A stretch of 60,087 bases of DNA, taken from IMG/VR virus record IMGVR_UViG_3300045988_173323; one strand, written 5' to 3'. A program made the position numbers and the translations under genes. Positions 1 to 60,087 of this stretch are shown here, piece by piece. This DNA comes from a virus. The notes under the pieces were generated by a model. That model searched no databases. It was not told the DNA's origin and saw only the letters and a list, made by a program, of their open reading frames with translations. Each line of letters begins with the position of its first letter. Position 1 is the stretch's first letter.

Positions 1-55
1 AACTTGTTACAATGGTATTATATCGCACCTTAGCTTAAAAGTCAAGCATTTTCGT

Positions 56-235
56 TTATTTTTTAAAATCTTTTAACTGCTGGTTTGTAGACAACTCTTT
101 AATTTTATATTTATGTAATCTGTTGTTTAAACAATAAATGCATGAACCATGGTTTCTGCACTGCATTGATATTGCTTTTGCTTTGCGGTATTCTTTTCTA
201 TGCTCTTTACCACTTTTAATTGCTTTGTCCATCAT
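56..235 (-). CDS. small Cys/His-rich protein (59 aa), absent from ORF track
   Basis: Manual translation of the minus strand gives MMDKAIKSGKEHRKEYRKAKAISMQCRNHGSCIYCLNNRLHKYKIKELSTNQQLKDFKK. An RBS (AGGTGG) lies 6 nt upstream. It sits directly downstream of the nucleotidase gene in the same operon. The C-x5-C-x2-C pattern suggests a small zinc-binding protein. Confidence 0.35.
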   Translation of the reverse strand: MMDKAIKSGKEHRKEYRKAKAISMQCRNHGSCIYCLNNRLHKYKIKELSTNQQLKDFKK

Positions 236-252
236 GTTTAACCACCTACTTT

Positions 253-726
253 CTATAAGAAATTTTTTAATACTTCCATGATATTGTTTACATCAAAACT
301 ATTTTTGCCCCACTCTTTTCTATTGCGTTCCTCGTCATCAAAAAGCCATCCCTTACAATCAACGACAGTACTTTTTGGTGTACCATAGTTTACAATTTTG
401 ATTTCATCCCATTCAATACTAGGCAAGTGTTTTTCAAGCCATGCAAGTTTTACACTTGTTACCGCCGTATTATAAGAAGCTGACCCGCTTTTACTTAACC
501 AGCTTACAATACCGATTCTATAGCCATTAGCTTGTAACTTGTGAAGCACTCTTGCGAAAGCTGAAAAATTGAAAAGCGGTTTTGCTACTTTGTATGGTGT
601 AGTATCTTCTTTTTCCAAATATGCTAACCAGTTTTCCACGCCGTAGAAATTAGCAAGTGTGCCGTCCATGTCAAAATAAATAGTTCCCTTTGTGTTCATC
701 ATTTCTTTAATTGTATTATTCATCAT
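253..726 (-). CDS. HAD-superfamily 5'(3')-deoxyribonucleotidase-like phosphatase
   Basis: The N-terminal FDMDGTLANF matches the DxDGT(L/V) HAD motif I of NT5C-type deoxyribonucleotidases. The size (157 aa) fits. The track start at 738 is a TTG; ATG-ATG at 724-726 with a GGGAAGGA RBS is more likely. Confidence 0.55.
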   Translation of the reverse strand: MMNNTIKEMMNTKGTIYFDMDGTLANFYGVENWLAYLEKEDTTPYKVAKPLFNFSAFARVLHKLQANGYRIGIVSWLSKSGSASYNTAVTSVKLAWLEKHLPSIEWDEIKIVNYGTPKSTVVDCKGWLFDDEERNRKEWGKNSFDVNNIMEVLKNFL

Positions 727-844
727 AATATCTACCAATCCTTCCCTTTTTGATTATCGCAAGTGCTTTGCGATTGACCGACCAATGATTATGTGAACCT
801 TGCTTTGTTTCTGTTTTTTAAGTTTAATGTCCTTCGACAAGTAT

Positions 845-873
845 ATATTACTACATCTTAGCGAAAAAGTCAA
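845..873 (-). promoter_or_regulatory. sigma70-like promoter (TTGACT-17-TAATAT) for the leftward nucleotidase operon
   Basis: Minus-strand reading: TTGACT, a 17-bp spacer, then TAATAT. It lies about 100 nt upstream of the ATG at 726. Confidence 0.4.
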
Positions 874-1170
874 ATTTATTTTTTATTGTGCAAAGTGATG
901 AAAATTTTACATAAAAATCATAGTATTTTTGTTAAAATGTACAAATGTAGAAAAATAATGCGGATTTAGGCAGATTTTTGTGCATTTTGCTATCTTAAAT
1001 ATCACATATTGTGTTTCTGCGTGTCAAAAAAGGTATGATTTTTTATTAAAATTTCGTCACTTTGCACAAGGTGTAGAAAATCTTAGCATTATTTTATTAA
1101 ATTTTGTACATTTTGTACACCATGTCAAAAAATGGGATTTTTTTAATTTATTTTTTGTGCAAATTGCCTA

Positions 1171-1200
1171 TTGACAAAAAGGTGCTAGATGTGGTATAAT
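1171..1200 (+). promoter_or_regulatory. near-consensus sigma70 promoter with extended -10 (TTGACA-17-TGgTATAAT), rightward
   Basis: TTGACA at 1171-1176 and TGGTATAAT at 1192-1200. No plus-strand CDS follows; the transcript would start about 1207 inside a GC hairpin. Confidence 0.55.
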
Positions 1201-1205
1201 AAAAT

Positions 1206-1227
1206 TTCGGGGTGCCCCGACCCCGAA
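1206..1227. other. GC-rich hairpin (TTCGGGG-N8-CCCCGAA) between two face-to-face promoters
   Basis: A 7-bp perfect stem with an 8-nt loop; locally >70% GC in a ~28% GC genome. It lies at +1 of the rightward promoter and about +12 to +33 of the leftward promoter. Confidence 0.5.
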
Positions 1228-1245
1228 CGGAATTCGTCTACTTCC

Positions 1246-1274
1246 ATTATAGCATACTCGAGCCACCTTGTCAA
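1246..1274 (-). promoter_or_regulatory. consensus sigma70 promoter (TTGACA-17-TATAAT), leftward, convergent with promoter 1171-1200
   Basis: Minus-strand reading: TTGACA (RC of 1269-1274), a 17-bp spacer, TATAAT (RC of 1246-1251). The -35 lies in the left arm of the 28-bp inverted repeat. Confidence 0.55.
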
Positions 1275-1339
1275 GAGAAAAAATGCACAAATTTTAGGAT
1301 AAAAATTTTGAAAAATTTGTGCATTTTTTCTCTTGACAA
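1268..1339. repeat. 28-bp perfect inverted repeat (TTGTCAAGAGAAAAAATGCACAAATTTT / reverse complement) separated by 16 bp
   Basis: Arms are at 1268-1295 and 1312-1339 and are exact reverse complements. Each arm carries a TTGACA -35 (of the divergent promoters) plus a TGCACAAA element. Confidence 0.9.
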
Positions 1340-1361
1340 AATGTCTCAACTATGCTATAAT
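1333..1361 (+). promoter_or_regulatory. consensus sigma70 promoter (TTGACA-17-TGcTATAAT), rightward, divergent from promoter 1246-1274
   Basis: TTGACA at 1333-1338 and TATAAT at 1356-1361 with TG at 1353-1354. The mirror arrangement matches the leftward promoter because of the inverted repeat. Confidence 0.55.
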
Positions 1362-1365
1362 GGAA

Positions 1366-1398
1366 GGCTCGGCTCGCATGGGCTGCTCGCGAGCCGGC
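1366..1398 (+). other. GC-rich structured leader (GGCTCGC...GCGAGCC; 10-bp palindrome GCTCGCGAGC) at +1 of the rightward promoter
   Basis: Seen directly in the sequence; about 75% GC over 33 nt. No ORF with an RBS follows. Confidence 0.4.
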
Positions 1399-1449
1399 TA
1401 TTATAACACATTTTCCGCGACTTGTCAACCCCTTTTAAAAAATTTTTTT

Positions 1450-1522
1450 ATTTTCGTCATTTTGCATAAAAATAAAATTCAGCATTTTGCACAAATTTTA
1501 TTTTCGTCATTTTGCATAAAAA
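1450..1522. repeat. two identical 23-bp direct repeats (ATTTTCGTCATTTTGCATAAAAA) exactly 50 bp apart
   Basis: Copies are at 1450-1472 and 1500-1522. A TTTTGCACA (DnaA-box-like) 9-mer lies between them at about 1486-1494. Confidence 0.85.
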
Positions 1523-1549
1523 AACAAAAGCCTAAATTATATAGGCTTT
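1514..1549 (-). terminator. rho-independent terminator ending the leftward early region
   Basis: A 7-bp stem AAAGCCT/AGGCTTT (1527-1549) is followed on the minus strand by a U-run (complement of A-rich 1516-1526). It lies 19 nt past the stop of CDS 1568-1774. Confidence 0.5.
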
Positions 1550-1567
1550 ATCATTACTCTTATTAAG

Positions 1568-1774
1568 TTATTTAGTATTACATTTACATTTTGCTTCTGT
1601 AATAATTTCTGTCTGATTAATTTCTGTATTGCTATTGTTATTAAAAAAATGGTCTGAGCCTTTTGCTAAAAAAACTATTATAGTTGCTAGAATCATTCCG
1701 ATTATAAGAAAACCAATTAGACCATTCAAATCTCTTCTAAATTCTTCATCTGTTGGGGCTTTTTCTTCTCTCAT
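1568..1774 (-). CDS. small membrane protein (68 aa, one central TM helix)
   Basis: ORF track entry; hydrophobic segment LIGFLIIGMILATIIVFLA. Confidence 0.5.
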   Translation of the reverse strand: MREEKAPTDEEFRRDLNGLIGFLIIGMILATIIVFLAKGSDHFFNNNSNTEINQTEIITEAKCKCNTK

Positions 1775-1820
1775 TTATTTTTTCCTTTTTTTAGAGTTGT
1801 GAGTTGTGAATTTCATGGAC

Positions 1821-2000
1821 TTAATTATTATTAAGTCCATGAAACTTTTTATTTTCTCGTTTCATTATTGTTTCATAAGCAATCTCTACTATTTCTTTTG
1901 AAATATTTTGATTTTCTGCTATTTTACAGAACATAATCACTGTATCATTTTCAAACCCTTTTACTTTAATTACATTATCCATCATCTCTGTTCTTGTCAT
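1821..2000 (-). CDS. small protein, paralog family A (59 aa from the MTRTEMMDNV start)
   Basis: The ORF track start at 2021 lies only about 5 nt from the predicted TSS. The ATG at 1998-2000 has an RBS (AAAGAGAGG) at correct spacing. It is paralogous to ORF 2160-2285. Confidence 0.5.
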   Translation of the reverse strand: MTRTEMMDNVIKVKGFENDTVIMFCKIAENQNISKEIVEIAYETIMKRENKKFHGLNNN

Positions 2001-2032
2001 TATTGCTTTCCTCTCTTTCATTTGATAATGTT

Positions 2033-2061
2033 ATTATACTATAAAGTCGGCTACTTGTCAA
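2033..2061 (-). promoter_or_regulatory. consensus sigma70 promoter (TTGACA-17-TATAAT), leftward, with conserved leader cassette
   Basis: Minus-strand reading: TTGACA (RC of 2056-2061), a 17-bp spacer, TATAAT (RC of 2033-2038). It is followed by the leader AACATTATCAAATGAAAGAGAGG, which is shared with the cassettes at 2921-2984 and 4366-4426. Confidence 0.55.
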
Positions 2062-2159
2062 CTACATTTTTTAAATGTTTAATTGCTTTTTCTCATTTTT
2101 ACTATCTTTTTCTTTTTTCTTTGTCGCATGAGTTTTTAAAACTCATGCGACTTTTACTA

Positions 2160-2285
2160 TTATTTTATTACTACTGCGTAAGCAAGTTCTACTGTTGTAT
2201 TTGAAACTTCACTTTCTGCTAATTTACAAAACCAGATTGTCAGTTCATCTTCAAAGCCTCTTGCTTTAATCACATTGTCCGTCAT
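2160..2285 (-). CDS. small protein, paralog family A (41 aa), absent from ORF track
   Basis: Manual translation gives MTDNVIKARGFEDELTIWFCKLAESEVSNTTVELAYAVVIK. It aligns with the core of the 1821-2000 product (MMDNVIKVKGFENDTVIMFCKIAENQNISKEIVEIAYETI). A TTGACA-17-TAATAT promoter lies upstream at about 2300-2330. Confidence 0.45.
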   Translation of the reverse strand: MTDNVIKARGFEDELTIWFCKLAESEVSNTTVELAYAVVIK

Positions 2286-2364
2286 TTCTTTTTTTACTGT
2301 TGTCTTTGACTGTTTTTATATTATCACAAAAGCTTGATTTTGTCAAGTTTTTGTGATATTTTTT

Positions 2365-2697
2365 TTACTTTTTTTGTTTAAAATTACTATGTAATTCAAT
2401 TACTTTACCGCAGTTGTCACAAGTCCAATAGTAAATTGTTCCGACATTTTTTATATAGTCTGCGTTTGCAAATCTCCATTTATTTCCGCACTCTACACAG
2501 TAGCCATTGTTCCAATTTACTTTATCGGATGATTGTTCAATTTTAATTAGCCATGTAAAAGTGCATCCTATTAAAAGAGCTAAGATAATGCCAATTACTG
2601 TTTTAATGATTCGATTTCCATTTTCATAAAAGATGTTTACCATAAATCCGCCAACGAATATTGTCATAAGAATCGTTACTAAAATTGTTCTAATCAT
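2365..2697 (-). CDS. membrane-anchored zinc-ribbon protein (110 aa)
   Basis: Two N-terminal hydrophobic helices, then C-x2-C ... C-x2-C (CVECGNKW...CDNCGKV). An RBS (GAAGGAA) lies upstream. Confidence 0.5.
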   Translation of the reverse strand: MIRTILVTILMTIFVGGFMVNIFYENGNRIIKTVIGIILALLIGCTFTWLIKIEQSSDKVNWNNGYCVECGNKWRFANADYIKNVGTIYYWTCDNCGKVIELHSNFKQKK

Positions 2698-2720
2698 TTT
2701 TTAATTCCTTCTTTCTTTAT

Positions 2721-2921
2721 TTATTTATTATTACTATCTCTCTTAACTATATTTATAATATCACATTTTTCGGTTTTTGTCAAGCCTTTTTCCTCTTTTA
2801 AAATTCTATTGATTTGGTTTTTAATATCCTTCAAATCTTCAAGACTGCAATAAACTTTATCACCCCAACCGCCTTTAATTGTATAAGGATAACTCTTATC
2901 ATCACTTTTTTCTACTGTCAT
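2721..2921 (-). CDS. hypothetical protein (66 aa from the MTVEKSDD start)
   Basis: The track start at 2984 lies inside the -35 of its own promoter. The ATG at 2919-2921 has a GAGAGAGG RBS and the conserved leader. Confidence 0.5.
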   Translation of the reverse strand: MTVEKSDDKSYPYTIKGGWGDKVYCSLEDLKDIKNQINRILKEEKGLTKTEKCDIINIVKRDSNNK

Positions 2922-2955
2922 TTTTATCAACCTCTCTCTTTCATTTGATAATGTT

Positions 2956-2984
2956 ATTATACTATAGGTCTTAACAAAAGTCAA
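2956..2984 (-). promoter_or_regulatory. consensus sigma70 promoter (TTGACT-17-TATAAT), leftward, with conserved leader cassette
   Basis: Minus-strand reading: TTGACT, a 17-bp spacer, TATAAT. The -35 is embedded in the imperfect palindrome AGGTCTTGAC-TTTT-GTTAAGACCT. Confidence 0.55.
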
Positions 2985-3002
2985 GACCTATTTTATTTTT
3001 TC

Positions 3003-3404
3003 TCAAATTTTTGTTATTCCTCTGTCTTTCAAATATTCACAAAAACTATCAGAGTCAAGCATTTTCGCAATGTCTTTCATTGAAACGTTCATTTTGTTAT
3101 ACACACAACGTACTTCAATAGGTTTAAATTTTTTTTCTGTAATAGCTGTTGATAAAGAATCTTCTACATTGCTTAATCGAACAACTCTTTTTTTAAAGAA
3201 ATTTTTTGAAATTTCAGCATTTATAAATAAACCTTTTTCAACTAAATTAATCAGTTCGTCAAAAGTGTTGATTGTAAAGTTCCTTGTCTTTGCTTCTGCT
3301 TCTTCTGGGGTAAGGTATCTTACGTGTTCCCAGATACTTGTATCAACAAAGTTTTTTCGACCCTCTATTCTGTACTTGAATCTATAATCATAAACTTCTT
3401 TCAT
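3003..3404 (-). CDS. hypothetical protein (133 aa from the MKEVYDYRF start)
   Basis: ORF track entry. The track start is a TTG; the ATG at 3402-3404 is preceded by AGAAAGAGG. Confidence 0.5.
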   Translation of the reverse strand: MKEVYDYRFKYRIEGRKNFVDTSIWEHVRYLTPEEAEAKTRNFTINTFDELINLVEKGLFINAEISKNFFKKRVVRLSNVEDSLSTAITEKKFKPIEVRCVYNKMNVSMKDIAKMLDSDSFCEYLKDRGITKI

Positions 3405-3437
3405 TTTTATCAACCTCTTTCTTTATTTTCTATATTT

Positions 3438-3466
3438 ATTATACAGTATCTATTGACTTTTGTCAA
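3438..3466 (-). promoter_or_regulatory. consensus sigma70 promoter (TTGACA-17-TATAAT), leftward
   Basis: Minus-strand reading: TTGACA (RC of 3461-3466), a 17-bp spacer, TATAAT (RC of 3438-3443). The flank has the same AAAATAGGTCTTGAC upstream element as the promoter at 2956-2984. Confidence 0.5.
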
Positions 3467-3481
3467 GACCTATTTTATTTT

Positions 3482-3742
3482 TTATTTTGGAAGGATAACC
3501 TCAGCTTCGACAGGTACTACTTTCTCAGATGCCATAAAAGCTTTCATATATCCCGTAGCAAGATTAACCGCAATGAATCTACCTTTTTGTCTTTCCAAGA
3601 AAAAACCGCTATTCCTATCAATAATCATGTACAACCCGATTTCATCAATACCACCTCTTTGACTAATACTGAAAAAAGTTTTTCCTATTGTCAAGTCATT
3701 GATGCAAATTTCTGTTGCTTTTTTATCATAGTTGATTTTCAT
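3482..3742 (-). CDS. hypothetical protein (86 aa)
   Basis: ORF track entry; an AGAGAGG RBS lies 8 nt upstream. Confidence 0.5.
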   Translation of the reverse strand: MKINYDKKATEICINDLTIGKTFFSISQRGGIDEIGLYMIIDRNSGFFLERQKGRFIAVNLATGYMKAFMASEKVVPVEAEVILPK

Positions 3743-3760
3743 TTTAATTACCTCTCTTTC

Positions 3761-3943
3761 TTATTTAATTTCTTTAAAGATACTTTCATCTGTGGCATTA
3801 CATAACTTATTATTTACGTTATACTTAGCATAAAGCCACTTTTTACAATCCCATTTTAGCGGACAATGATAACAAGTTGTAGTAAAAGCCGTGGTTTCCA
3901 TCGGAATTGCAAGAAATATCTTTTTAAGTTTTTTAGTTATCAT
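3761..3943 (-). CDS. small Cys-rich protein (60 aa; CYHCPLKWDCKKW)
   Basis: ORF track entry; an AAGGAGGAG RBS lies upstream. Confidence 0.45.
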   Translation of the reverse strand: MITKKLKKIFLAIPMETTAFTTTCYHCPLKWDCKKWLYAKYNVNNKLCNATDESIFKEIK

Positions 3944-3976
3944 ATTATTTTTTTCTCCTTCCTTTTAACTATCTTT

Positions 3977-4005
3977 ATAATACCATATTAAAATTATTTT
4001 GTCAA
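3977..4005 (-). promoter_or_regulatory. sigma70-like promoter (TTGACA-17-TATTAT), leftward
   Basis: Minus-strand reading: TTGACA (RC of 4000-4005), then a -10 with 5 of 6 matches. Confidence 0.35.
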
Positions 4006-4084
4006 TCCCCTTTTATAAAAAATTATAAAAAAGGAAGATTTTTTATCTTCCTTTTACTTTTGTTTTATTCTTGTTTTTTTATTT

Positions 4085-4231
4085 TTATCTTAATAATCTT
4101 AATAAATAGTTATTTTCATGCTCTTTCAAAAAAGCGTTAATTTCTTCTATTGTTTCAGCGTAAATCTCGCCTGTCTCAGTGTCTACAAGCATCAATTTTT
4201 TACTTCCTAAAAATAATCCTAAATCTAACAT
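4085..4231 (-). CDS. small protein (48 aa), absent from ORF track
   Basis: Manual translation gives MLDLGLFLGSKKLMLVDTETGEIYAETIEEINAFLKEHENNYLLRLLR; an RBS (AATGGAGGG) lies upstream. Confidence 0.35.
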   Translation of the reverse strand: MLDLGLFLGSKKLMLVDTETGEIYAETIEEINAFLKEHENNYLLRLLR

Positions 4232-4245
4232 ATTTAAGCCCTCCA

Positions 4246-4365
4246 TTAAGAAATTTTTACCAGATAACCGTTTGTATTTTTTTCTACTGAAAAAATGTAT
4301 TGATTATCTTTTAAGTATTTTTTTACAGTTTCAAATGCTTTTCGAGTTGTCAGTAACATTGTCAT
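4246..4365 (-). CDS. small protein (39 aa), absent from ORF track
   Basis: Manual translation gives MTMLLTTRKAFETVKKYLKDNQYIFSVEKNTNGYLVKIS. It is preceded by the conserved leader cassette (AAATGAAAGAGAGG). Confidence 0.35.
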   Translation of the reverse strand: MTMLLTTRKAFETVKKYLKDNQYIFSVEKNTNGYLVKIS

Positions 4366-4397
4366 ATCCCTTTACCTCTCTTTCATTTGATAATACT

Positions 4398-4426
4398 ATG
4401 ATACTATATTTCTTTGCTTTTGTCAA
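4398..4426 (-). promoter_or_regulatory. sigma70 promoter (TTGACA-17-TATCAT), leftward, with conserved leader cassette
   Basis: Third copy of the module ...TAT(A/C)ATAGTATTATCAAATGAAAGAGAGG. Confidence 0.5.
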
Positions 4427-4543
4427 GCATTTTAGGAAAATTTTCTAAAGATTTTTTTATGCGGATTTCCGCTGGAAAAACCTGAACTTAAGGAGATTAT
4501 AGGCGAACCGACTCCAGAACTATCAAGTTCGGGAGTCCCTTTT

Positions 4544-4720
4544 TTATTTAAGGAATGATTCTAAAGCCTTGTAGCATAAATCAGCGTTTTCTTTATCTTT
4601 TATGCTAGTACCTTTAGAAAAGTCATTCATAGCGGCTGTCAGTAGTTCTGGTACTGAAATAAATTCAAATTCAAATACCAACTGTAAAGCCGCCAATTCA
4701 TTAAGATTGACTTTTTTCAT
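4544..4720 (-). CDS. small protein (58 aa), absent from ORF track
   Basis: Manual translation gives MKKVNLNELAALQLVFEFEFISVPELLTAAMNDFSKGTSIKDKENADLCYKALESFLK; an RBS (GGAGATAAG) lies upstream. Confidence 0.4.
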   Translation of the reverse strand: MKKVNLNELAALQLVFEFEFISVPELLTAAMNDFSKGTSIKDKENADLCYKALESFLK

Positions 4721-4769
4721 CGGTTCTTTCTTATCTCCTTTTTAAATATTTTATTTTCTTTACATTATT

Positions 4770-4798
4770 ATTATATCAAATTTTTTAATAAAAATCAA
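4770..4798 (-). promoter_or_regulatory. sigma70-like promoter (TTGATT-17-TATAAT), leftward
   Basis: Seen on the minus strand upstream of ORF 4544-4720. Confidence 0.4.
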
Positions 4799-4814
4799 AA
4801 AAGATACTTTATCT

Positions 4815-4854
4815 AAACAAGCAAAGAAAAGGGCTGAACTTATTCCGCCCTTTT
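4815..4854 (-). terminator. putative rho-independent terminator after the lipoprotein-like gene
   Basis: A 7-bp stem AAAGGGC/GCCCTTT with a 12-nt loop, followed by a U-rich tract on the minus strand. Confidence 0.35.
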
Positions 4855-4866
4855 CCCGCTTCCCCG

Positions 4867-5133
4867 CTATCCTATTATCTCTGCATTTGTAATAATATCA
4901 TCTGTCACGTTGTCAGTCCCTAAAGAATCCATGTATAATTTAACTCTATCTTTTGCTTTAAAACCGTCTCCATAGAAACTCCAAACATGTCCGTAGCTAT
5001 CCATAACCACCACCTCATCATTAAAAGAGCTAATCACTTTAGCTTCTCTTGTATACTTAGTAAAGCTACCAAAACCGCAAATACTACTTAAAACTGCACT
5101 TACTGCTAATCCTAAAATCACCTTTTTCATCAT
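4867..5133 (-). CDS. secreted or lipoprotein-like small protein (88 aa from the MMKKVILG start)
   Basis: An N-terminal signal-peptide-like segment ends ...AVLSSICGF, a possible lipobox Cys. The track start is a TTG; ATG-ATG is preceded by AGAAAGAGG. Confidence 0.5.
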   Translation of the reverse strand: MMKKVILGLAVSAVLSSICGFGSFTKYTREAKVISSFNDEVVVMDSYGHVWSFYGDGFKAKDRVKLYMDSLGTDNVTDDIITNAEIIG

Positions 5134-5135
5134 AT

Positions 5136-5414
5136 CTAACTCCAACCTCTTTCTTTCTTAATCTTTTCGTATCTTTCTTTTGCTTCTTTTTCAATCTTCT
5201 TTTTGTCATACATTCTAATTTTCATTCTAGTATATCCGTCTCTTTTTAAACACCAACGTTCTGTTTTACGTTGTACTACTATTTTATCAATAGCTCTTTG
5301 CTGTACCTCTTGCTTATGAGTGTTGTAATATTTGATACTCTCAATTTCTAATAAAGTACTTATTGGTCTGTACTTATTGGTTACACTAAACAAAGTGCAT
5401 TGAATTGTTATCAT
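5136..5414 (-). CDS. basic (K/R-rich) hypothetical protein (92 aa), possibly nucleic-acid binding
   Basis: ORF track entry. An AGAGAGGTGA RBS lies upstream. It is the first gene after the promoter at 5443-5471. Confidence 0.5.
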   Translation of the reverse strand: MITIQCTLFSVTNKYRPISTLLEIESIKYYNTHKQEVQQRAIDKIVVQRKTERWCLKRDGYTRMKIRMYDKKKIEKEAKERYEKIKKERGWS

Positions 5415-5442
5415 CTTCTTATCACCTCTCTTTTCAAGTATT

Positions 5443-5471
5443 ATTATACTACCTTATTATACCATTGTCAA
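5443..5471 (-). promoter_or_regulatory. consensus sigma70 promoter (TTGACA-17-TATAAT), leftward, first promoter of the early region
   Basis: Minus-strand reading: TTGACA (RC of 5466-5471), a 17-bp spacer, TATAAT (RC of 5443-5448). Confidence 0.5.
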
Positions 5472-5489
5472 GCGTTTATTTATAGTATT

Positions 5490-5880
5490 TTTATTCGTCT
5501 TAATGCATATTTATTTATGTATATTTATTCACATTGCTAGTTAGCTTTACATATTTTATATTTATATCCTTTTATAAATTTTATAAATTAAATTATAAAA
5601 TAAAATATAATATATCAGTTATTGCATTGTTTTACTTAATATTTATTTAAGCATATCTTTCTTATTATACTATTATGTTATTCTATTATAACTATTATAA
5701 GACAAGAGTCTTACGTTGAATACACTATTATTATTATTGTAACACTTCTATAAAAGTAATTACATAATATAAAATATTATTATACTTATACTTTGTATGT
5801 ATTGTTATAGTATAATATTATTATACTGTTATTATTATTATTATTATTATCTTTCCTTTATCTTAAGCTTAATCTCTCAT
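5490..5880. repeat. about 390 bp of extreme AT-rich low-complexity non-coding DNA with an (ATT)7 microsatellite (5831-5850)
   Basis: Seen directly in the sequence. No ORF is present. A small palindrome TAAGAC-AAGA-GTCTTA lies at about 5698-5713. Confidence 0.6.
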
Positions 5881-5899
5881 TATAACACCTTTAGCTCAT

Positions 5900-6170
5900 T
5901 CTGTCAATAGACATTTTACACAATTTTTTCTTTTGATTTTCGTGCAGATTGACCATTGACATTTCTTGTCTATTGACATTTTGTACAAAAATCAAATTAT
6001 ATTTTTGTATACTTTTACCATTGACAGGACTTGTCAATAGACATAATGCACAAAATTTTCCTTGCATTTTTGTGCAATTTTACCTATTGACAAACTCATT
6101 TTAGGAAAATATCTTTGTGCATTTTTTACAAAAATTTAGCCAAAAATTTGTGCATTTTGTCTATTGACAG
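5900..6170. promoter_or_regulatory. array of at least 5 copies of the near-palindromic 12-mer TGTC(TATT/AATA)GACA flanked by TTGTGCA / TGCACAAA elements, in both orientations
   Basis: Copies are at 5903-5914, 5967-5978, 6032-6043, 6084-6092 (half site) and 6158-6169. ACCATTGACA appears at 5952 and 6017. The same motif family occurs in the 980-1340 control region. Confidence 0.6.
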
Positions 6171-6177
6171 GCTTCTC

Positions 6178-6223
6178 GGAGCGTTGCGAAAGTATACGCT
6201 CCGATGGTAGATGGCAAGCTACC
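6178..6223. other. pair of GC-rich hairpins (GGAGCG-N13-CGCTCC; GGTAG-N8-CTACC) immediately after the last repeat copy
   Basis: Seen directly in the sequence; locally about 55% GC versus a ~28% background. Confidence 0.45.
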
Positions 6224-6507
6224 AATAGCCAATAAAATTCTAATCTTCTTGCTTTATTTTAATTATTTAAAGAATTTATTTTATTAGTTTAACTCTTTCT
6301 CCTCTTTATTTAAAATAATGTGTTCAAAATCCTTCTGAACAAAAAACATATCCTCTTTGGAAAATGATTTGAAAAATTATTTGTTAGGCGGTGTTTTGTT
6401 GCTTCTTACTCAAAAGAAAAGACCAATCTACAGACCATACCCAAACATAATACCCGGGCTATATTAAAGGATTAAAATTTTTTACTTTTATAAAAAGATA
6501 GTGTTCT

Positions 6508-7390: not shown

Positions 7391-7419
7391 TTGACAAAAA
7401 AATTTTTTTGTGGTATAAT
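7391..7419 (+). promoter_or_regulatory. near-consensus sigma70 promoter with extended -10 (TTGACA-17-TGgTATAAT) driving the rightward structural operon
   Basis: TTGACA at 7391-7396 and TGGTATAAT at 7411-7419. The RBS AAAGGAGAAATT lies before the ATG at 7447. The region is divergent from gene 6965-7309. Confidence 0.6.
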
Positions 7420-7446
7420 ATAATTGTAAATTAGAAAGGAGAAATT

Positions 7447-8604
7447 ATGACACCAATAATAATAGAAGATGAAGCTTTTGAGGAGAATATTTTAGAAGAA
7501 GAAAAAACAACAGAAAAACAAATCAAAGAAGAAAATATACAAACTACTATTAAATTAGATTATTCTTTAGAGACTCCTGAAGAGCGGAATGAATTAGTTA
7601 AAAAAATTATAAATAATACTCCTTCTGAGCAATTAACACCTAGATATTTAGAAATATTGTCAGATTACATTATTTTTGCTATGGATAAACAAGAGCGGAA
7701 ACAAAAGCAAATATTAACTGATAATCACATGGTCACAGTTAACAAAAGAGAAACTTCTTTTGAAGGATTAGTTGGTCGCTTAGAGAATGGCGAAGATGGC
7801 ATTTATAATATGATTGCTAATGATAAGAATATTATCTTTACACCTAAATTTCAAATAACTCAACAAGATATTGCGGAAATCCCCGAGTTAAAACAACTTG
7901 TAGACGCGATTGCGGAAGTTGAAAAAGCTGAGAAAAAAGCAGTTGGTAAAAAGAAATTTTTATTAAAAAAGCAACTTATTGCTATGAGACAAGATCAATA
8001 TGTAATTAGAAGTGCATATAAGCCGCCAATTTATTGTATGAACGCAATTAAAAGTTTTAGCAAAATTGATTTTGATGAAAATGTTTCTATTAGCGGAGAT
8101 GATGAAATTGAAGATAATAGCTTAGTTTCTTTTTTTAATCCTAAGCACGTATCTGCGTTATTATGTAACTATTCCCGCCTAAAAGAAGATGCATGGGGAA
8201 AATTCTATAGTGATTCATACTTTTTAATGGAAGATTTAGATACATTAATAGAAAAGACTTTAAGAGACAGCTATCCAATGTATTATGACCTCTTGATTTA
8301 TAAAATAGATGGAAAACAAAATCTTGAAATTCAAAGCCTATTGAATCAAAAGCATAATGTAAAACATTCAGTGGAATATATATCATCTTTGTGGCGGAAT
8401 AAGATACCTAAGCTATTGTCAGAGCAAGCTCAGGAAGACTACTTAATTTGGTATTATACGACTCAGAAGAAGGGAAAATGGAAAAAATGTTCCCGCTGTG
8501 GGGAAATCAAATTAGCTCATAATAAATTTTTTTCAAAGAATAAGACAAGCAAAGATCATTTTTACAGTATATGTAAATGTTGTCGAAATAAGAAAAATAA
8601 GTAA
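7447..8604 (+). CDS. hypothetical acidic protein with a C-terminal C-x2-C...C-x2-C zinc ribbon (385 aa)
   Basis: ORF track entry. The C-terminus reads CSRCGEIKLAHNKFF...ICKCCRNKKNK. It is the first gene of the late operon. Confidence 0.55.
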   Translation: MTPIIIEDEAFEENILEEEKTTEKQIKEENIQTTIKLDYSLETPEERNELVKKIINNTPSEQLTPRYLEILSDYIIFAMDKQERKQKQILTDNHMVTVNKRETSFEGLVGRLENGEDGIYNMIANDKNIIFTPKFQITQQDIAEIPELKQLVDAIAEVEKAEKKAVGKKKFLLKKQLIAMRQDQYVIRSAYKPPIYCMNAIKSFSKIDFDENVSISGDDEIEDNSLVSFFNPKHVSALLCNYSRLKEDAWGKFYSDSYFLMEDLDTLIEKTLRDSYPMYYDLLIYKIDGKQNLEIQSLLNQKHNVKHSVEYISSLWRNKIPKLLSEQAQEDYLIWYYTTQKKGKWKKCSRCGEIKLAHNKFFSKNKTSKDHFYSICKCCRNKKNK

Positions 8605-54802: not shown

Positions 54803-55393
54803 TTATTGTCCATGTATAAAATCTGCAATAGGTTCAAAAGAGTCAAACATACTAGGAGCATAATCAGATTCATTATAAAAAGTTATATATTCAAAATTAA
54901 TGTCTGAAAAATCTCTTTCGTCAGCAAGAAATCTTCGACAAATTTCTCTGCAATCTGGGTTATGTTCTCTTCTTAAAGCTCTTTTTAATCTTTCTTTTCC
55001 TGGTGCTTCTATTAAAACTGGTAGTACCTCTATTCTTTCATCTTTCAATAATTGCCTAATCCCTGAGATACTAAAAACACCAATATTTATTTTATCTTTA
55101 TCTAACTCTTGGATAGAAGTGCCATATAGCCATTTTTTAAAATAAACCGCATCTATTATATCTTTATTGCGAACCCGTCTTTCAAAATCATCACGATATA
55201 GAAAATAATAATCTATGCCATCTCTTTCGTATGCTCTTGGTGATCTAGTAGTACAACTAATAATTTCTTTTATTTCTGAATGATTGTAACACATTCGTTT
55301 TTTTATAGTATCTTTTCCTGCACCGCTCTTTCCGAACAGTGCAAGAACTTTATATTTTGACATTTTATTCTCCTTCCATACCATATCTAACAT
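54803..55393 (-). CDS. gmk: guanylate kinase-family nucleoside monophosphate kinase
   Basis: The P-loop GKSGAGKDT, the TTRSPRAYERDGIDYYF guanylate-kinase signature (TTRxPRxGExDGxDYxF), and the YGTS motif. Confidence 0.75.
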   Translation of the reverse strand: MLDMVWKENKMSKYKVLALFGKSGAGKDTIKKRMCYNHSEIKEIISCTTRSPRAYERDGIDYYFLYRDDFERRVRNKDIIDAVYFKKWLYGTSIQELDKDKINIGVFSISGIRQLLKDERIEVLPVLIEAPGKERLKRALRREHNPDCREICRRFLADERDFSDINFEYITFYNESDYAPSMFDSFEPIADFIHGQ

Positions 55394-56776
55394 GCTCTAG
55401 TTTCATATCTGAACCATTGACGTCAATAATCTTGTAGAGCTGATGGGTAGGGGTATGTTTATACGATTTAGTCTGAAATGTATCTCCACGCCTAAACCCA
55501 GTACACATTACTTTTGTTCCTCTTTGAAACCAGCCTTTTTCCATAACTTTTTTAGTTCCATCTTCTTGCTTTTCAGAAATTTGTCTCCCAAACATAGCAA
55601 AGTAATCTTTTGTAAATTTTACATTAACAACTCCAGAAGTTGTTAATAATGATATTGAAGAACGAGCATCATTTTTACTGATTACAGTGCCAATGATTTT
55701 ATAAGTCTTATAAATAGGGATTTCTTTTCCATTTCTTTTGAAAAAATAATCTACAACAGGCTCTTCGGGTAATTTAGAAAAATCTGAAATTCCATACTTT
55801 AAAGTATCAATATTTATTAATTCATGTGGATGATAATAAAAACATAAGCTTTCCATTTCCCACGCGGAAATATTTCCTTTAGCATATTTATTCCAAGAGT
55901 CAAGAAATAAAGCCTCATTAAATTCTTTTAATACTGTCTGTTGATTCTCTTTAAGCCAATCTCTAGCTCTATCCATGCCTTTTTGATACTTTTTATCCCA
56001 TTTGTTTTGTAAAATACAAACGCATCCGTTTATCACTTCAAGGTCTTCCATATCGTATCTTTGATTGTAGAATTTTTCACAAGCATCATCAAAGACATAA
56101 TATTTTCCAACTTTTTTCTCAGTTTTTAGATACTTATTAAAGAAAAATAATCTTTTCATACTATCTAAAGAAGGTGGAATTAAGTCTTTTTGAATTAAAC
56201 CATTAAAGTTTTGTAGCGTTAATTTCTTTTTTGGTTCACTAACAACAGACAGATAATATATCATTACAAGCACTCTTGGTTCAACATTTAATTCTTTTGC
56301 CCATTCTAATTCCAGTTTATCAAAAGCTCCGCTCTTTATTAAGGAAATCATTGCAGATTTATTTAAAGGACATCTTATCATAAAGTCTTTAATGCTTTTA
56401 TATGGTCTACCAGAAAAAATCTGCTCAATAATTGGTGCACCTACATTACTCAATGCTTTCATTCCAAAAAGAATTTCGTTGTTTTCAACATCTGGCTTAA
56501 AGCTATAGTCAGATTTATTTATATCAACTAAAGAAATTTTTATTCCTCTTGATAAAATATCTCCAATAGCCTTAGCTATTTTACTATAATCCGTAGATTT
56601 TTCTTTCTTTTTACTTTCTTCTGTTTCTTCTTCATTTTCAATATTATCTTCTTCTAAGGCTCCACTATTTACAATTAAACACGCGGTATTCCAATAGATA
56701 GGATTCCATCTTGTGGCTATGTATATAGTTTGAAATCCTATGAAAGAGTAAGCCAGGGCATGTATGCATAATTTAA
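55365..56776 (-). CDS. dnaE: DNA polymerase III alpha (DnaE-type) C-terminal exon (HhH + OB-fold region), downstream of the intron
   Basis: The translation upstream of the track start continues in frame as HALAYSFIGFQTIYIATRWNPIYWNTA...DINKSDYSF...EILFGM-KALSNVGAPIIEQI, matching the DnaE ...SHAxAYSxIGxQ... fingers and HhH region. The 5' limit at 56776 is the estimated 3' splice site (+/- a few nt). My reading of the displayed sequence near 56460 differed by 1 nt from the ORF track, and I trust the track. Confidence 0.7.
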
Positions 56777-56777
56777 A

Positions 56778-57992
56778 ATTACTGACTATTTTTTACAGAC
56801 GTTGTAGTGAGATTTTGGCTTTTCTCTTGTCTGCACACTATTTCCCAAAACGTATCAATAGTTTCAGTACTCCCCGTCTAACCAGGGATAGTCGATACAA
56901 CATTTTTCTTTTAATAGATTTATTTATTATCTCTAAGAGGGTATTTATATTTTTCTTTTTTATGAGAACGTCCTGCGTTAATATTTTTAATTGTTGCATA
57001 GCTTTTATTCCATTTTTTTGCGATATCTTTTAAAGATAAATCTGTTTCTAAAATATCTTTTATAATACCTTGAATCCAGATTTCATTTTTAGCTTTATTA
57101 CCACCTTTATCACAAAGAGGGTAGTTATCCTTATCACTATAAAAATATTTTCCTGTATTTATCATAGATAAAAATCCAGCTGATTTAATTCCAAAATCTT
57201 CTTGAATTGTTTTATATTTTTCTCCGCTTTTAATTCTATCTTTTATTTCTCTAATTTCTTTTTGAGAAAAGCGGCTTTTAGAATTTTTCTTTAAAGGATA
57301 ATCAAACTCTTCATTAAAATAATTTGTTCCAGTATTTATATTAACTAAAAACGTTCTTTTTAACTTAGGAAAATAAATTTTTTCAATATCATCATATTCT
57401 TCATCATTCATTAGACGATTTTGGATATCAATAATTTCTTCTTTTTTAAAGAGTTTAGATCGGTTTAATTTTTCTTCATACGTTAAAGGTTTTCTTTTAT
57501 ATCCTTGTCCGCCTAAAGTAATATTATATCCATTTTCATCTTTTAAAGAATGATAATATTGAATAAAATAAATTTCTCTTTCGTCAATATATTCTTGAGA
57601 TTCTCCATCAGCAATCTCTTCAAGAATATCAAAATTAAAATTATCCCAACCATATTTTCTTATGGCTGCGTGAAATGGCAAATTATAGCCAGAAGTTTTT
57701 TCATTAAAAGACTCACTTTTATGTCCATTTTTTCTTTTTTGAACATTATTAGTTTGTCCGATATAAATTTTACCATTTGTTTTATTTGTAAATTTATAAA
57801 TATAGTACATAATATTCTCCTTATACATTGTTTTACTATTCTCATGTATAACTGAAAAATACTATACCTCTATTAAAGAAATTTGTCACGAGATTTAACC
57901 CTCGTTAGCAATTAAAACCATATTTGCCAAATATGTAAATGTTTTAATTACCCCACTGATAAGTGGTTAAGTGTGTAAGCACCATTCACACA
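56778..57992 (-). mobile_element. group I intron (about 1.2 kb) in dnaE carrying a GIY-YIG homing endonuclease ORF
   Basis: dnaE reading frames lie on both sides. The insertion falls inside the conserved GY(S/G)F-NxS-HAxAY polymerase motif. In-frame stops follow exon 1 at 57986. A free-standing HEG with its own RBS lies inside. Flanking blocks of about 180 and 140 nt are compatible with a group I core. The boundaries are approximate. Confidence 0.7.
56920..57810 (-). CDS. GIY-YIG homing endonuclease (intron-encoded), 296 aa from MYYIYKFTN
   Basis: The classic N-terminal YYIYKFTNKTNGKIYIGQT...R...H...N...E GIY-YIG module is present. The C-terminal two-thirds looks like a DNA-binding extension. 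An AAGGAGA RBS precedes the second ATG; the track start at 57828 is 6 codons upstream. Confidence 0.8.
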   Translation of the reverse strand: MYYIYKFTNKTNGKIYIGQTNNVQKRKNGHKSESFNEKTSGYNLPFHAAIRKYGWDNFNFDILEEIADGESQEYIDEREIYFIQYYHSLKDENGYNITLGGQGYKRKPLTYEEKLNRSKLFKKEEIIDIQNRLMNDEEYDDIEKIYFPKLKRTFLVNINTGTNYFNEEFDYPLKKNSKSRFSQKEIREIKDRIKSGEKYKTIQEDFGIKSAGFLSMINTGKYFYSDKDNYPLCDKGGNKAKNEIWIQGIIKDILETDLSLKDIAKKWNKSYATIKNINAGRSHKKEKYKYPLRDNK

Positions 57993-60087
57993 ATGCTAAA
58001 GCTATATCCCATCTGCGGACCTATGCCATATTTCCATACATAGTCTCCGAGTTCTTTTCTTTTAGCTTGTTCAATAACCTTCTTTTTCAATTCTGGAATT
58101 TTACTCATTTGTTTTTTACCAACAATTTTTCTCGCGGTGTTGGCTTCAGATAACTTAAAACCGCAAATATCCTTATCCATTAACATACTCATTAATTGTT
58201 CTTGACTTGGCGGAACACCATAAGACTTTAAGAAATAAGGTTCTAATGTTTTCATCTCTTGAGGAGATAACCCCTCTCTTCTCATTTCTTGATACCAAAG
58301 ATCAATATTTTTTTTATATCTTACATATTTTTCCATTGGCGTTTCTTGACCTTTTTCACTAGTCATAAGTCTCATTAATCCATTAGCATCTGACATTTCA
58401 ATTATTGAGGCTGGCTTAATTTTTTTTGCAGCCTGACTGCCTACATCGCTATCAAATTGAAAAATATTTAAAACTGAGTTGTTTTGCAGTGCTTTCCAAC
58501 ATTTTTTATCTTCGATAGGTAAAACACTTGGATGAAAATATTTTTCATACACTTCTTTTAAAGATAAATCTGATTCAATTTCATTATTAGCCTGTAGTAA
58601 TTTAATTGTTTCTGCTAATTTATCCTGGACTTCAGTTACTAAGAAGTCATATTTTGTCATACCTGCTGCTTCGCACATATGAAGATCCCATTGCGTAATA
58701 ATTTCTCCTTTAGGAGTCCGCATAAAACATCCAAATTCATATGGGTCTTCATCAAAAAGGATTACTCCAGAAGCATGAGAACTCCTTTTGTTTACTAACC
58801 CTTCAATAGCAATCATAATATCTAATAAGCCAGGATATTTTTCTACCTCATTAGTAAACATCTTAATAGGCTTTCTATCTTTATCTGGGTTACCATTAAT
58901 GGCATCTGATAAAGACCATAAAAAACCTCTTTCACTTGGAATTAAAGAAGATAAAAATTGAGCAGTGTCAACATCAATTCCGTCTGGATACTCTTCACTT
59001 CTATATCCGCGACAAGCAGTTAAAATAGTTGATCGAGTACCTTCAGTTCCAAAAGTGGCTATCAACGTACATCCTAAATTTTTTCGAGATAAAACATCGA
59101 TATCTTTTTTAAAATTTTTTCCGCGTTCTTCCTTTATTTTCTTTAAAATTAAAGGTCTTTTACTTGGACTTAAATCTAAATCTATATCTCCAAGCTCTAT
59201 ACGCTCTTTATTTAAATATCTCCAGAAAGGAAGCTCCCATTCAATCGGATCTAGTTGAGTAATTCCCATTAAGTAATGATTTAATCCAGAGCAAGAACTT
59301 CCTCTTCCTGCACCTACCATACTTCCGCAATCCCAAAATAAATCAACATAATGTTGTAAAGTATTAGGATAACTAAACATATTAGTTTCAAGTTTTTTAC
59401 TAATAGTATCTTTAATATCAGCTTCTTCTTCTAATCGAGATAAATAAGTATTGTTATATTTATTTATTTCTTGGAGTTTTTGCAAACAAGTATTAACCCA
59501 ATATCTGTCTTGAATATCATCACTTAATAATAATTTATGTAAAGTAGGATATTCCTTTAAAGAGTTATCTTTAGGGTAATCTCTAACTTTAACTTTTGGA
59601 ATTGTTTGTTTATGTTTTAAATTATAATTTTCAATTTTAGAATAAATTTCTAAAGAATTATTACATAATTCTTCATAATTTAACTCAGAAGGCTTTAAAT
59701 TTTCAATTATTTCTTCTTCTGATTGCAAGTAACTATATTCATAAAACTCATCAACTTCTCGTTCTCCACCCTTAGAATTTAAGTAAGATTTATGAACAAA
59801 TCTATCTTCTTTTTTTAAATAATGAGCATCTGTGCCAAGTACCATTTTTATATTAAAACATCTAGCAATAGATAAAAGTCTCTTATTTACCATTACTTGA
59901 TCTTTACTTTGTCCTGGAGCACACTCAATATAGAAATCTTGTCCAAATAAAGACTTGTTCCATAAAATAAAATTAACTATTCTATTATGAGCTTCCCCCG
60001 CAGATTCAACATCTTTCATCTGCTCTGCTAAAATTAATTGTTTAGTTAAAGTGCTTAATTCTCCGCCCAAACATGCTGTTGTTGCAA
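57993..60087 (-). CDS. dnaE: DNA polymerase III alpha (DnaE-type) N-terminal exon (PHP domain + polymerase core), truncated by the window end
   Basis: The PHP motif GTDAHY and the palm/fingers region are present, ending ...GIGPQMGYSF immediately before the intron. The ORF remains open at 60070-60087, so the start lies beyond the window. Confidence 0.8.

Follow-up and report, generated by a model that had tools for sequence, protein, structure and literature searches.

The DNA analyzed here (the window) is a 60,087-nt stretch of the virus record IMGVR_UViG_3300045988_173323. Our subject is a pair of promoters, P1 and P2, that point at each other across a GC-rich hairpin (hp1) within a 720-bp non-coding stretch (positions 840–1560). 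The original prediction had reported face-to-face consensus promoters with a hairpin between them, and we found all of these elements in place (Table 1), both promoters matching the consensus hexamers at 12 of 12 positions and carrying a TG extension of the −10 box.

Four promoters in this stretch, P1 to P4, fit the definition that we adopted, namely TTGACA and TATAAT 16–18 nt apart, with an optional TG-extended −10. In first-order Markov simulations, 0.125 perfect (12/12) promoters were expected in the window, as opposed to the 11 observed, four of which are packed within 258 bp; a chance origin of the promoters at this locus is excluded. P1 is oriented against the early genes, its leader reading AAAATTTCG before hp1 begins, and the first gene reached by P2 and P4 in the sense direction encodes a protein resembling 5'-deoxyribonucleotidases (the Pfam match, at 24.4 bits, falls slightly under the 24.8-bit cut-off of the family). 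The −10 boxes of P1 and P2 are 45 bp apart. When starts are placed 7 nt past the −10, a rule of thumb rather than a measurement, they are predicted at ~1207 and ~1239, about 32 nt from each other, which agrees with the earlier proposal that the opposing transcripts overlap at their 5' ends. We found no open reading frame (ORF) with a plausible start downstream of P1 or P2: the ORFs that overlap positions 1168–1406 either begin 5' of the predicted starts or lack a ribosome-binding site (RBS).

Table 1. Features of the promoter cluster and selected genes of the window (A- and B-type promoters are defined in the text)
Feature	Position	Strand	Description
P1	TTGACA 1171–1176, 18-nt spacer, TATAAT 1195–1200	+	12/12, TG-extended −10; A-type
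P2	TTGACA 1274–1269, 17-nt spacer, TATAAT 1251–1246	−	12/12, TG-extended −10; early-gene direction
P3	1333–1361 (TTGACA-17-TATAAT)	+	12/12, TG; A-type promoter of the canonical neighbour cassette, against early genes
P4	1428–1400 (TTGACA-17-TATAAT)	−	12/12, TG; B-type, early-gene direction
hp1	1206–1227	both	GC-rich stem-loop, TTCGGGG(T)-loop-(A)CCCCGAA
P2 initially transcribed region	1228–1245	−	absent from canonical 36–39-nt cassettes; two alleles
hp2	1366–1398	both	GC-rich stem-loop between P3 and P4; −20.3 kcal/mol, z = −2.55
Inverted repeat I1	arms 1241–1295 / 1312–1366	both	55-nt arms, 91% complementary
TTTGTGCA box	1154–1161	+	9 nt 5' of the P1 −35
Three 21-nt repeats, TTTTCGTCATTTTGCATAA type	1449–1519	+	25-nt period, box reversed in each
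Intrinsic terminator	1527–1549	−	ends the upstream early operon, whose last ORF is 1568–1774
Terminator, + strand only	1811–1844	+	first such terminator 3' of P1 and P3; U-tract only on +
5'-Deoxyribonucleotidase-like ORF	253–738	−	Pfam NT5C, E = 3e-05; phrog_2643, E = 1e-11
Sigma-factor gene	7447–8604	rightward	phrog_5767, E = 4.5e-52; behind a 12/12 promoter with TG
DnaE-type Pol III alpha, two ORFs	55365–56462 and 57986–60070		split by a GIY-YIG endonuclease ORF, 56920–57828

The hairpin hp1 has a folding energy of −12.8 to −14.1 kcal/mol. On the − strand it has the composition of an intrinsic terminator, a G+C-rich stem-loop followed by a U-rich tract: TTCGGGGTCGGGGCACCCCGAA (−12.8 kcal/mol) precedes ATTTTATTAT, the tail AUUUUAUUAU stands directly 3' of the stem, and the structure was flagged by our terminator scan (8 pairs, 5 of them G–C). 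This sense-strand U-tract is good because the leader of P1 reads AAAAT and not GGAAAT. Taken by itself hp1 is not significant against dinucleotide shuffles (z = −1.3 to −1.6), and its significance derives from membership in the covarying hairpin family described below, not from its own z. The original prediction considered hp1 a leftward attenuator. That proposal is reasonable to the extent that the hairpin and its U-tract resemble an intrinsic terminator placed before the nucleotidase operon. When we sought an antiterminator structure that could replace hp1, only marginal competing helices emerged, none of any strength.

What the original account of the locus had missed, besides the polarity of the element and the atypical status of the P1/P2 copy, is a twin pair of promoters, P3 and P4, that encloses hp2. 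The insert between the −10 boxes of this second pair is 38 nt long, and the −10 of P4 is 1 nt from hp2. The arms of the inverted repeat I1 carry P2 and P3 plus TTTGTGCA boxes (1284–1290 on the − strand and 1317–1323 on the + strand), and P2 is evidently an inverted copy of P3 together with its upstream TTTGTGCA box. An RNA reading through I1 is predicted to form a hairpin of ~55 bp (−100 kcal/mol, z = −14). A second large imperfect palindrome (886–916 / 1039–1069, with 31-nt arms, 84% complementary, and TTGTGCA boxes at its ends) lies in the interval that separates the nucleotidase gene from the promoter cluster.

The heptamer TTGTGCA occurs 19 times in the window, as compared with 5.6 expected, and 11 of these copies are concentrated in 886–1494 and 6047–6154, the latter belonging to a second non-coding stretch. 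Attempts to identify the TTTGTGCA box with a known site gave nothing: typical copies depart from the DnaA box (TGTGNATAA) by two mismatches, and the spacing fits none of the Rex, CRP/FNR and CodY consensus sequences. The TTTTCGTCATTTTGCATAA type of repeat is also present at 1049–1069; its complement contains TGACGAA, a possible match to the 0A-box of Spo0A, TGNCGAA.

Convergent pairs built like those of this locus are a recurrent feature. Applying a threshold of at least 11/12 for the promoters and a distance of 25–74 nt between the −10 boxes, we counted 38 convergent pairs in 0.9 Mb of DNA, made up of the window and 61 related IMG/VR loci, every one of them with a strongly folding insert, whose GC content (49–76%) is to be compared with ~30% in the surrounding DNA. 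A collection of contigs from IMG/VR, metagenomes and metagenome-assembled genomes (MAGs) yielded 41 distinct GC-rich inserts between convergent promoters with consensus or one-off hexamers. These cassettes (or modules) occur several per genome, between early operons: two are in the window and close relatives have a third.

The same 0.9 Mb contains 806 distinct promoters at 11/12 or better, and these split cleanly into 688 gene promoters and 118 hairpin promoters. The mean minimum free energy (MFE) of the 50 nt downstream is −2.6 for the former and −17 for the latter, while an RBS and start codon follow 80% and 12% of them, respectively. A TG before the −10 is found in 61% of gene promoters vs 95% of hairpin promoters, an exact TGTGCA box upstream in 2.6% vs 55%, and an opposing promoter within 10–90 nt in 3.5% vs 38%.

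When suitably oriented, the inserts share one layout, TATAAT-GG(A)AATTTC-[8–10-bp GC stem, 7–11-nt loop]-(0–4 nt)-ATTATA, and their length from −10 to −10 is sharply peaked at 36–39 nt. The two sides differ: on one side, termed A, 7–9 unpaired nucleotides (GGAAATTTC) intervene between TATAAT and the stem, vs 0–4 nt on the other, termed B. Since hexamers, TG and spacing are kept across the 41 distinct modules while the spacers diverge, it is evidently the promoter hexamers, not the spacers, that are under selection. Apart from hexamers and TG the two sides of a module have nothing in common, and we rejected the idea of transposon-like inverted repeats.

The stems covary. Paired cells amount to 86.5%, vs 66.8% when columns were shuffled (none of 500 shuffles reached 86.5%) and 32–42% in slid controls; both sides have changed in 42 cells where 15 were expected, affecting 6 of the 8 pairs, and the covariation score is 0.511 vs 0.192. 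Compared with dinucleotide shuffles the 41 inserts have a mean z of −2.0 (p = 5e-14). These data indicate that the structure of the stem rather than its sequence is under selection, as an RNA or a DNA element. The stems are near-perfect palindromes, with G·U pairs in just 5 of 179 paired cells. We judged a DNA cruciform unlikely, with loops of 7–11 nt.

The cassette is also polar. In 36 of the 38 modules where this could be determined, the A promoter is oriented against the gene promoters around it. The A −10 reads TATAAT in 39/39 cases, and the start region of A is AT-rich; the −10 of B is TAAAAT in 12/39 and the start region is GC-rich, and A is predicted to be stronger than B. The upstream gene ends in an A-tract/stem/U-tract terminator, directly after which comes the B promoter. 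A and the promoter of the next gene (G, with the pattern TCCCGAAATTTGTGCAA..TTGACA-17-TATACT-leader-RBS-ATG) diverge, with inverted TTTGTGCA boxes between the two. Read along the genes, a canonical cassette is thus arranged as gene, bidirectional terminator, B forward, hairpin, A backward, TTTGTGCA boxes, G forward, gene. In canonical modules the predicted start of B is inside the stem, such that the B RNA would not include the complete hairpin. A real U-tract after the stem is not a family trait: the tails read GAAATTTCC-ATTATA or GCC-ATTATA, with a mean of 2.2–3.5 T per 10 nt. In many relatives there are, in addition, A promoters that stand alone, with hairpin, A-rich linker and canonical terminator behind them but no B.

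A longer variant of the cassette, with two hairpins in 73–74 nt, occurs in related loci L037–L051 at ~4520–4670. Its first hairpin, in which G·U pairs and a compensatory G–C to A–U change are visible, is a terminator directly past the −10 of the sense promoter, whose own RNA would skip it. Early genes throughout the clade share a leader, TATAAT-AAATGTATCAAATGAAAGAGAGG-N-ATG (e.g., in L037–L052 and, in the window, at 2061 and 3466, both on the − strand), and the sequences suggest that such promoter/untranslated-region cassettes spread by recombination.

Measured against this family, P4/hp2/P3 is a canonical member by its insert length, by the distance of P4 from the stem and by the A-type box at P3. 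The P2/hp1/P1 copy is atypical, in that its insert is 45 nt long, P2 occupies the place of G, and the predicted start of P2 falls ~12 nt upstream of the entire hairpin. This arrangement was found only in the window and in 10 near-identical contigs (11 sequences altogether, including loci L035, L036, L053 and L194–L200), and comparing them indicates that both promoters are under selection. The −35, −10 and TG elements of P1 and P2 never change, hp1 is identical in all 11, and the hexamers, TG and spacing are kept in distant relatives as well. Spacer changes are few (two substitutions in the P1 spacer of L194, others in the P2 spacer of L195).

Variation is found elsewhere. The segment 1229–1245 (the 15–17 nt that follow the P2 −10) exists as two alleles, AATTCGTCTACTTCC or ACTTTGCCCTCTTTC, between near-identical flanks, and with two alleles only we dropped the notion of a hypervariable P2 5' segment; a search of the window for a target in trans of this segment gave a single match with 3 mismatches, at 26356. 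A hot spot of variation is hp2, inverted in L036, shortened by a 13-nt deletion in L053 and L194 and altered in its loop elsewhere. We interpret P1/hp1/P2 as a copy, rearranged and specific to this lineage, of a conserved non-coding cassette belonging to an uncultivated clade of ~135-kb gut phages.

To see how far the design extends, one may consider perfect convergent pairs in IMG/VR, of which at least 83 are distinct. Among the matches listed, 25/83 have a GC-rich hairpin of the same style, on contigs of 28–48% GC, many of them 80–197 kb long. The other 58/83 among the matches listed (L065–L181) have AT-rich inserts and form further recurrent families, one example being ATAGTTGCAAGATA..TTACGG..CCGT, with TA instead of TG before the −10. 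Such frequencies suggest that face-to-face consensus promoters are commoner in phages than the few studied cases imply. Scanning genome contigs, we also encountered the cassette in six contigs of gut MAGs (human, sheep and roe deer) with mixed taxonomy, which are probably mis-binned phage. No Rfam family matched at the gathering score, either in the window or at the modules of nine related loci; with an E-value threshold, positions 800–1600 gave nothing relevant, the sub-threshold miRNA-precursor models merely fitting the long inverted repeat. Searches of GenBank phages for near and distant DNA similarity, with the region or with ten concatenated modules as queries, returned no match.

The phage represented by the window is tailed and has a low GC content (~30%); near-identical contigs from human-gut metagenomes span 134–137 kb. 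Its large terminase (TerL) shares ~44% identity with the enzymes of Enterococcus and Geobacillus phages of ~140 kb. By TerL its nearest named relative is the metagenomic phage Phass-1, which has been placed in the genetic code 15 clade and whose first 50 kb contain no cassette module and only one 12/12 promoter. Positions 1–5500 of the window hold a run of small − strand ORFs, each preceded by a consensus promoter, which by all appearances is an early region dependent on the host sigma-A. The first rightward gene (7391–8604) encodes the sigma factor, whose C-terminus is rich in Cys and gives a weak endonuclease VII-like match; anaerobic NrdD/NrdG, a guanylate kinase and a DnaE-type polymerase are encoded too. 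No integrase or repressor turned up among the ~34 ORFs scanned, a part of those in the window.

Some features of the neighbourhood deserve mention in their own right. Terminators with a U-tract on the + strand only are present at 1811–1844, 2123–2151 and 2322–2358, amid − strand early genes; they look designed to stop antisense (rightward) transcription, such as that from P1 or P3, and the one at 1811–1844 is the likely 3' limit of the P1 and P3 RNAs. At 6148–6235, a TTTGTGCA box and a TTGACA without −10 precede a GC-rich two-hairpin element (MFE −29 kcal/mol, z = −5.2) that three close relatives have kept; it may represent another non-coding RNA or else a cassette that has degenerated. The region 5480–6170 begins with ~400 bp of low-complexity DNA, extremely AT-rich and containing (ATT)n runs, after which come 6–7 boxes of the form TTGT(G/A)(C/T)A-N8-9-TATTGACA, in either orientation and for the most part lacking a −10; an array of operators or a region resembling an origin is conceivable here. 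In many contigs of 130–195 kb the nucleotidase/early region is ~5–18 kb from a contig end, which hints that it lies near a physical genome terminus or terminal repeat.

From the anatomy, conservation, polarity and covariation described above we infer start sites, exclusion, pausing or termination, and control through the boxes, and combine them in a composite model whose probability we put at roughly 0.4: mutual exclusion of the promoters, pausing or termination at the hairpin over the opposing promoter, and gating of sense transcription. A and B would both be host sigma-A promoters, at full consensus or one base off and with TG. A (P1, or P3 in the adjacent copy) would fire against the genes, giving a non-coding RNA that opens with a complete stem-loop; B (P4, with P2 in that role for hp1) would fire along them. 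An open complex has a footprint of about −55 to +20. Because the starts are predicted to be just ~22–32 bp apart, two open complexes could not form simultaneously on such a footprint; they would be mutually exclusive, competing for the same downstream duplex, and each polymerase that escaped would be forced across the opposing promoter.

The hairpin would make this contest unequal. With a stem 0–4 nt from the −10 of B and then its complement, AUUAUA, the A polymerase would pause or terminate over B (pause-enhanced occlusion), and B transcripts, beginning inside the stem, would be spared the reciprocal effect. As regards position, and position only, the signals are where a pause of this kind would need them: the stem ends 0–4 nt from the B −10, and the U-tract of hp1 ends on the −10 of P1. 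By default A, the better promoter on paper, would hold B down, and a hypothetical factor binding the TTTGTGCA boxes common to A and G would probably set or flip the node. The net outcome would be a competitive interference node, or insulator, metering sense transcription into the next operon. The P1/P2 copy would be more symmetric, the RNAs from P2 and P4 mostly stopping at ~1200, over the P1 −10 and before the nucleotidase operon; transcriptional interference, which the original prediction had proposed for this pair, appears a reasonable mode of action.

Several considerations weigh against this model. The starts, the pausing and the termination are all deduced from sequence. The canonical tract after the stem (GCC-AUUAUA, or GAAAUUUCC) is a poor U-tract, and termination may be weak. 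The functional strand cannot be read from the stems, because the G·U pairs are without strand bias and both strands fold to about the same degree (33 vs 33 for antisense promoters, 22 vs 16 for sense promoters). Stand-alone A units resemble ordinary small-RNA genes, an argument for a role of the RNA product itself. Some loop segments recur (CA-N5-CGUG, noted by eye in a subset of inserts and uncounted), which hints at sequence-specific recognition as opposed to a generic pause hairpin. Furthermore, there is no evident reason to keep a strong B promoter merely to suppress it, and the box-binding factor is hypothetical.

The likeliest alternative, although we regard it as unlikely, is another one: the A promoters could be genes for abundant early small RNAs acting in trans as decoys or sponges, and B a secondary addition. 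The proposed targets are a host RNA-binding protein, an RNase or a defence sensor. The predicted RNAs, of ~70–120 nt, would consist of a 5' GC stem-loop, a linker and a terminator, and the stand-alone units of relatives, e.g., L044:6987(−), L054:3529(−), L030:1051(+) and L040:4645(−), measure ~70–80 nt; in a module, the A RNA would extend to the bidirectional terminator of the upstream gene. The conserved leader GGAAAUUUC, the recurrent loop parts, the covarying stems and the presence of several paralogues in each genome, none outside the early region, fit such RNAs. However, they match no Rfam family, and stems that vary freely, with hp2 even inverted between strains, are hard to reconcile with mimicry of one host RNA. 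Small-RNA genes would also leave the conserved abutment of B on the stem (0–4 nt) unexplained, and the P1 RNA has no nearby terminator, the first on the + strand being that at 1811–1844.

The palindromic character of the stems could be taken to mean a passive insulator, in which the hairpin is a shared protective 5' structure and/or a two-way terminator, with AUUAUA serving as the U-rich tracts and no competition between promoters; we consider this rather improbable. In its favour, the two strands fold about equally, with so few G·U pairs, and the complement of a −10 follows the stem on either side; hp1 was flagged as a − strand terminator, and 5'-terminal stem-loops stabilize mRNAs in E. coli and B. 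subtilis. Yet a canonical terminator already stands before B, inward-facing promoters restart nothing useful, and the B RNA, starting inside the stem, would be deprived of the full hairpin. Nor would a symmetric element be expected to show a 36/38 polarity.

A replication origin or primer site, at which strong promoters yield a GC-rich RNA that forms an R-loop or primes DNA synthesis, is less probable still. The surroundings of P1 and P2 are suggestive of it: the non-coding region is AT-rich and holds repeats at a 25-nt spacing, clusters of boxes and two large inverted repeats, and in single-stranded DNA the repeat 1241–1366 would rebuild a duplex P2/P3 promoter, as Frpo or sso elements do. 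There are precedents in the origin of the lactococcal phage c2, which needs a non-coding early transcript, and in the T4 and T7 origins, which contain promoters. But the cassettes are several per genome and spread among early operons, relatives do without the long inverted repeat, palindromic stems have no G/C skew favouring R-loops, and no replication-initiator gene is adjacent.

Finally, we give very little credit to a face-to-face developmental switch between two gene sets as in coliphages 186 and P2, the analogy drawn by the original prediction, since convergent promoters with overlapping 5' ends, and the interference documented in 186, are all that speaks for it, as opposed to the lack of any regulator ORF after either promoter, the multiple copies of the cassette between early operons, and a gene complement that includes a sigma factor of the phage, NrdDG and a DnaE-type polymerase but, among the ORFs scanned, neither integrase nor repressor.

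We entertain as possible, at odds well short of even, that the cassette is an undescribed self-contained promoter inverter that times early genes through exclusive polymerase binding, and/or a family of early anti-host or anti-defence RNAs with a 5' hairpin. As an inverter it would consist of two consensus promoters 36–39 bp apart plus a covarying stem-loop, reused at many operon boundaries; as an RNA family it would be recognized through the conserved leader and loop. This geometry and the covarying stem are conserved across phages of 28–48% GC, none of them cultured. If the inverter reading is true, a large sigma-A-dependent phage orders or insulates dozens of consensus promoters with no dedicated protein at each, and synthetic biology would gain a very compact (~100 bp) inverter/insulator. 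If the hairpin RNAs are the active product, they would make up a new, abundant family of phage early RNAs.

To our knowledge, interference between convergent promoters has been described for just a few coliphage switches, each present in a single copy. The cassette shares with 186 pR–pL and P2 Pe–Pc the face-to-face sigma-70-type promoters and the 5'-overlapping transcripts. In those phages the stronger promoter interferes in cis with the weaker, and repressing it indirectly activates the other: in 186, pR lowers pL 5.6-fold, and pL gains indirectly when pR is repressed (PMC6593788). However, each promoter there drives a regulator gene (cI/apl or C/cox), of which there is no counterpart here, in a single-copy lysis/lysogeny switch, whereas the cassette is multi-copy, sits in the early region of a large phage and has a conserved GC hairpin filling the overlap. 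The start sites of 186 are separated by roughly 60 bp; those of the cassette are closer (about 22–32 bp), and because of this we would expect outright exclusion between open complexes.

A parallel for the hairpin is lambda, where PR polymerases pausing at tR1 over PRE cause potent interference (PMC6593788). There too a pause or terminator signal keeps the polymerases of one promoter over a convergent promoter, pausing being an assumption in our case. The lambda promoters are 320 bp apart, though, and the target needs CII, whereas in the cassette the hairpin is 0–4 nt from the target −10, inside a 36–39-bp gap. In IS10 the promoters pIN and pOUT are face-to-face ~36 nt apart, and the antisense RNA forms a stable stem-loop whose sequence is the complement of the sense 5' end. 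The IS10 overlap spans the translation start of the transposase, unlike that of the cassette, which has neither RBS nor start codon and whose stem-loop is GC-rich and palindromic. With its 8-bp stem, 5 G–C pairs and AUUUUAUUAU tail, the − strand of hp1 is like an intrinsic terminator; unlike ordinary terminators and attenuators, it lies ~12 nt past the P2 start and overlaps the −10 of P1, and canonical members of the family have no real U-tract.

Short hairpin non-coding units behind a strong promoter, in an early/anti-defence region of a phage, also recall the RNA anti-CRISPRs (Racr), solitary repeat units that copy one host repeat sequence (PMC10651486). No matching CRISPR repeat array turned up in our genome scan, which was not designed to find arrays. 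In contrast to Racr, the cassette has stems that vary without constraint on sequence from copy to copy and from strain to strain, the changes being compensatory, and one of the stems is inverted; this free variation and the inversion of hp2 argue against CRISPR-repeat mimicry. The kind to which the cassette belongs is known, that of convergent-promoter interference or of cis-antisense units. What stands out is the part itself, standardized, polar, covarying and multi-copy.

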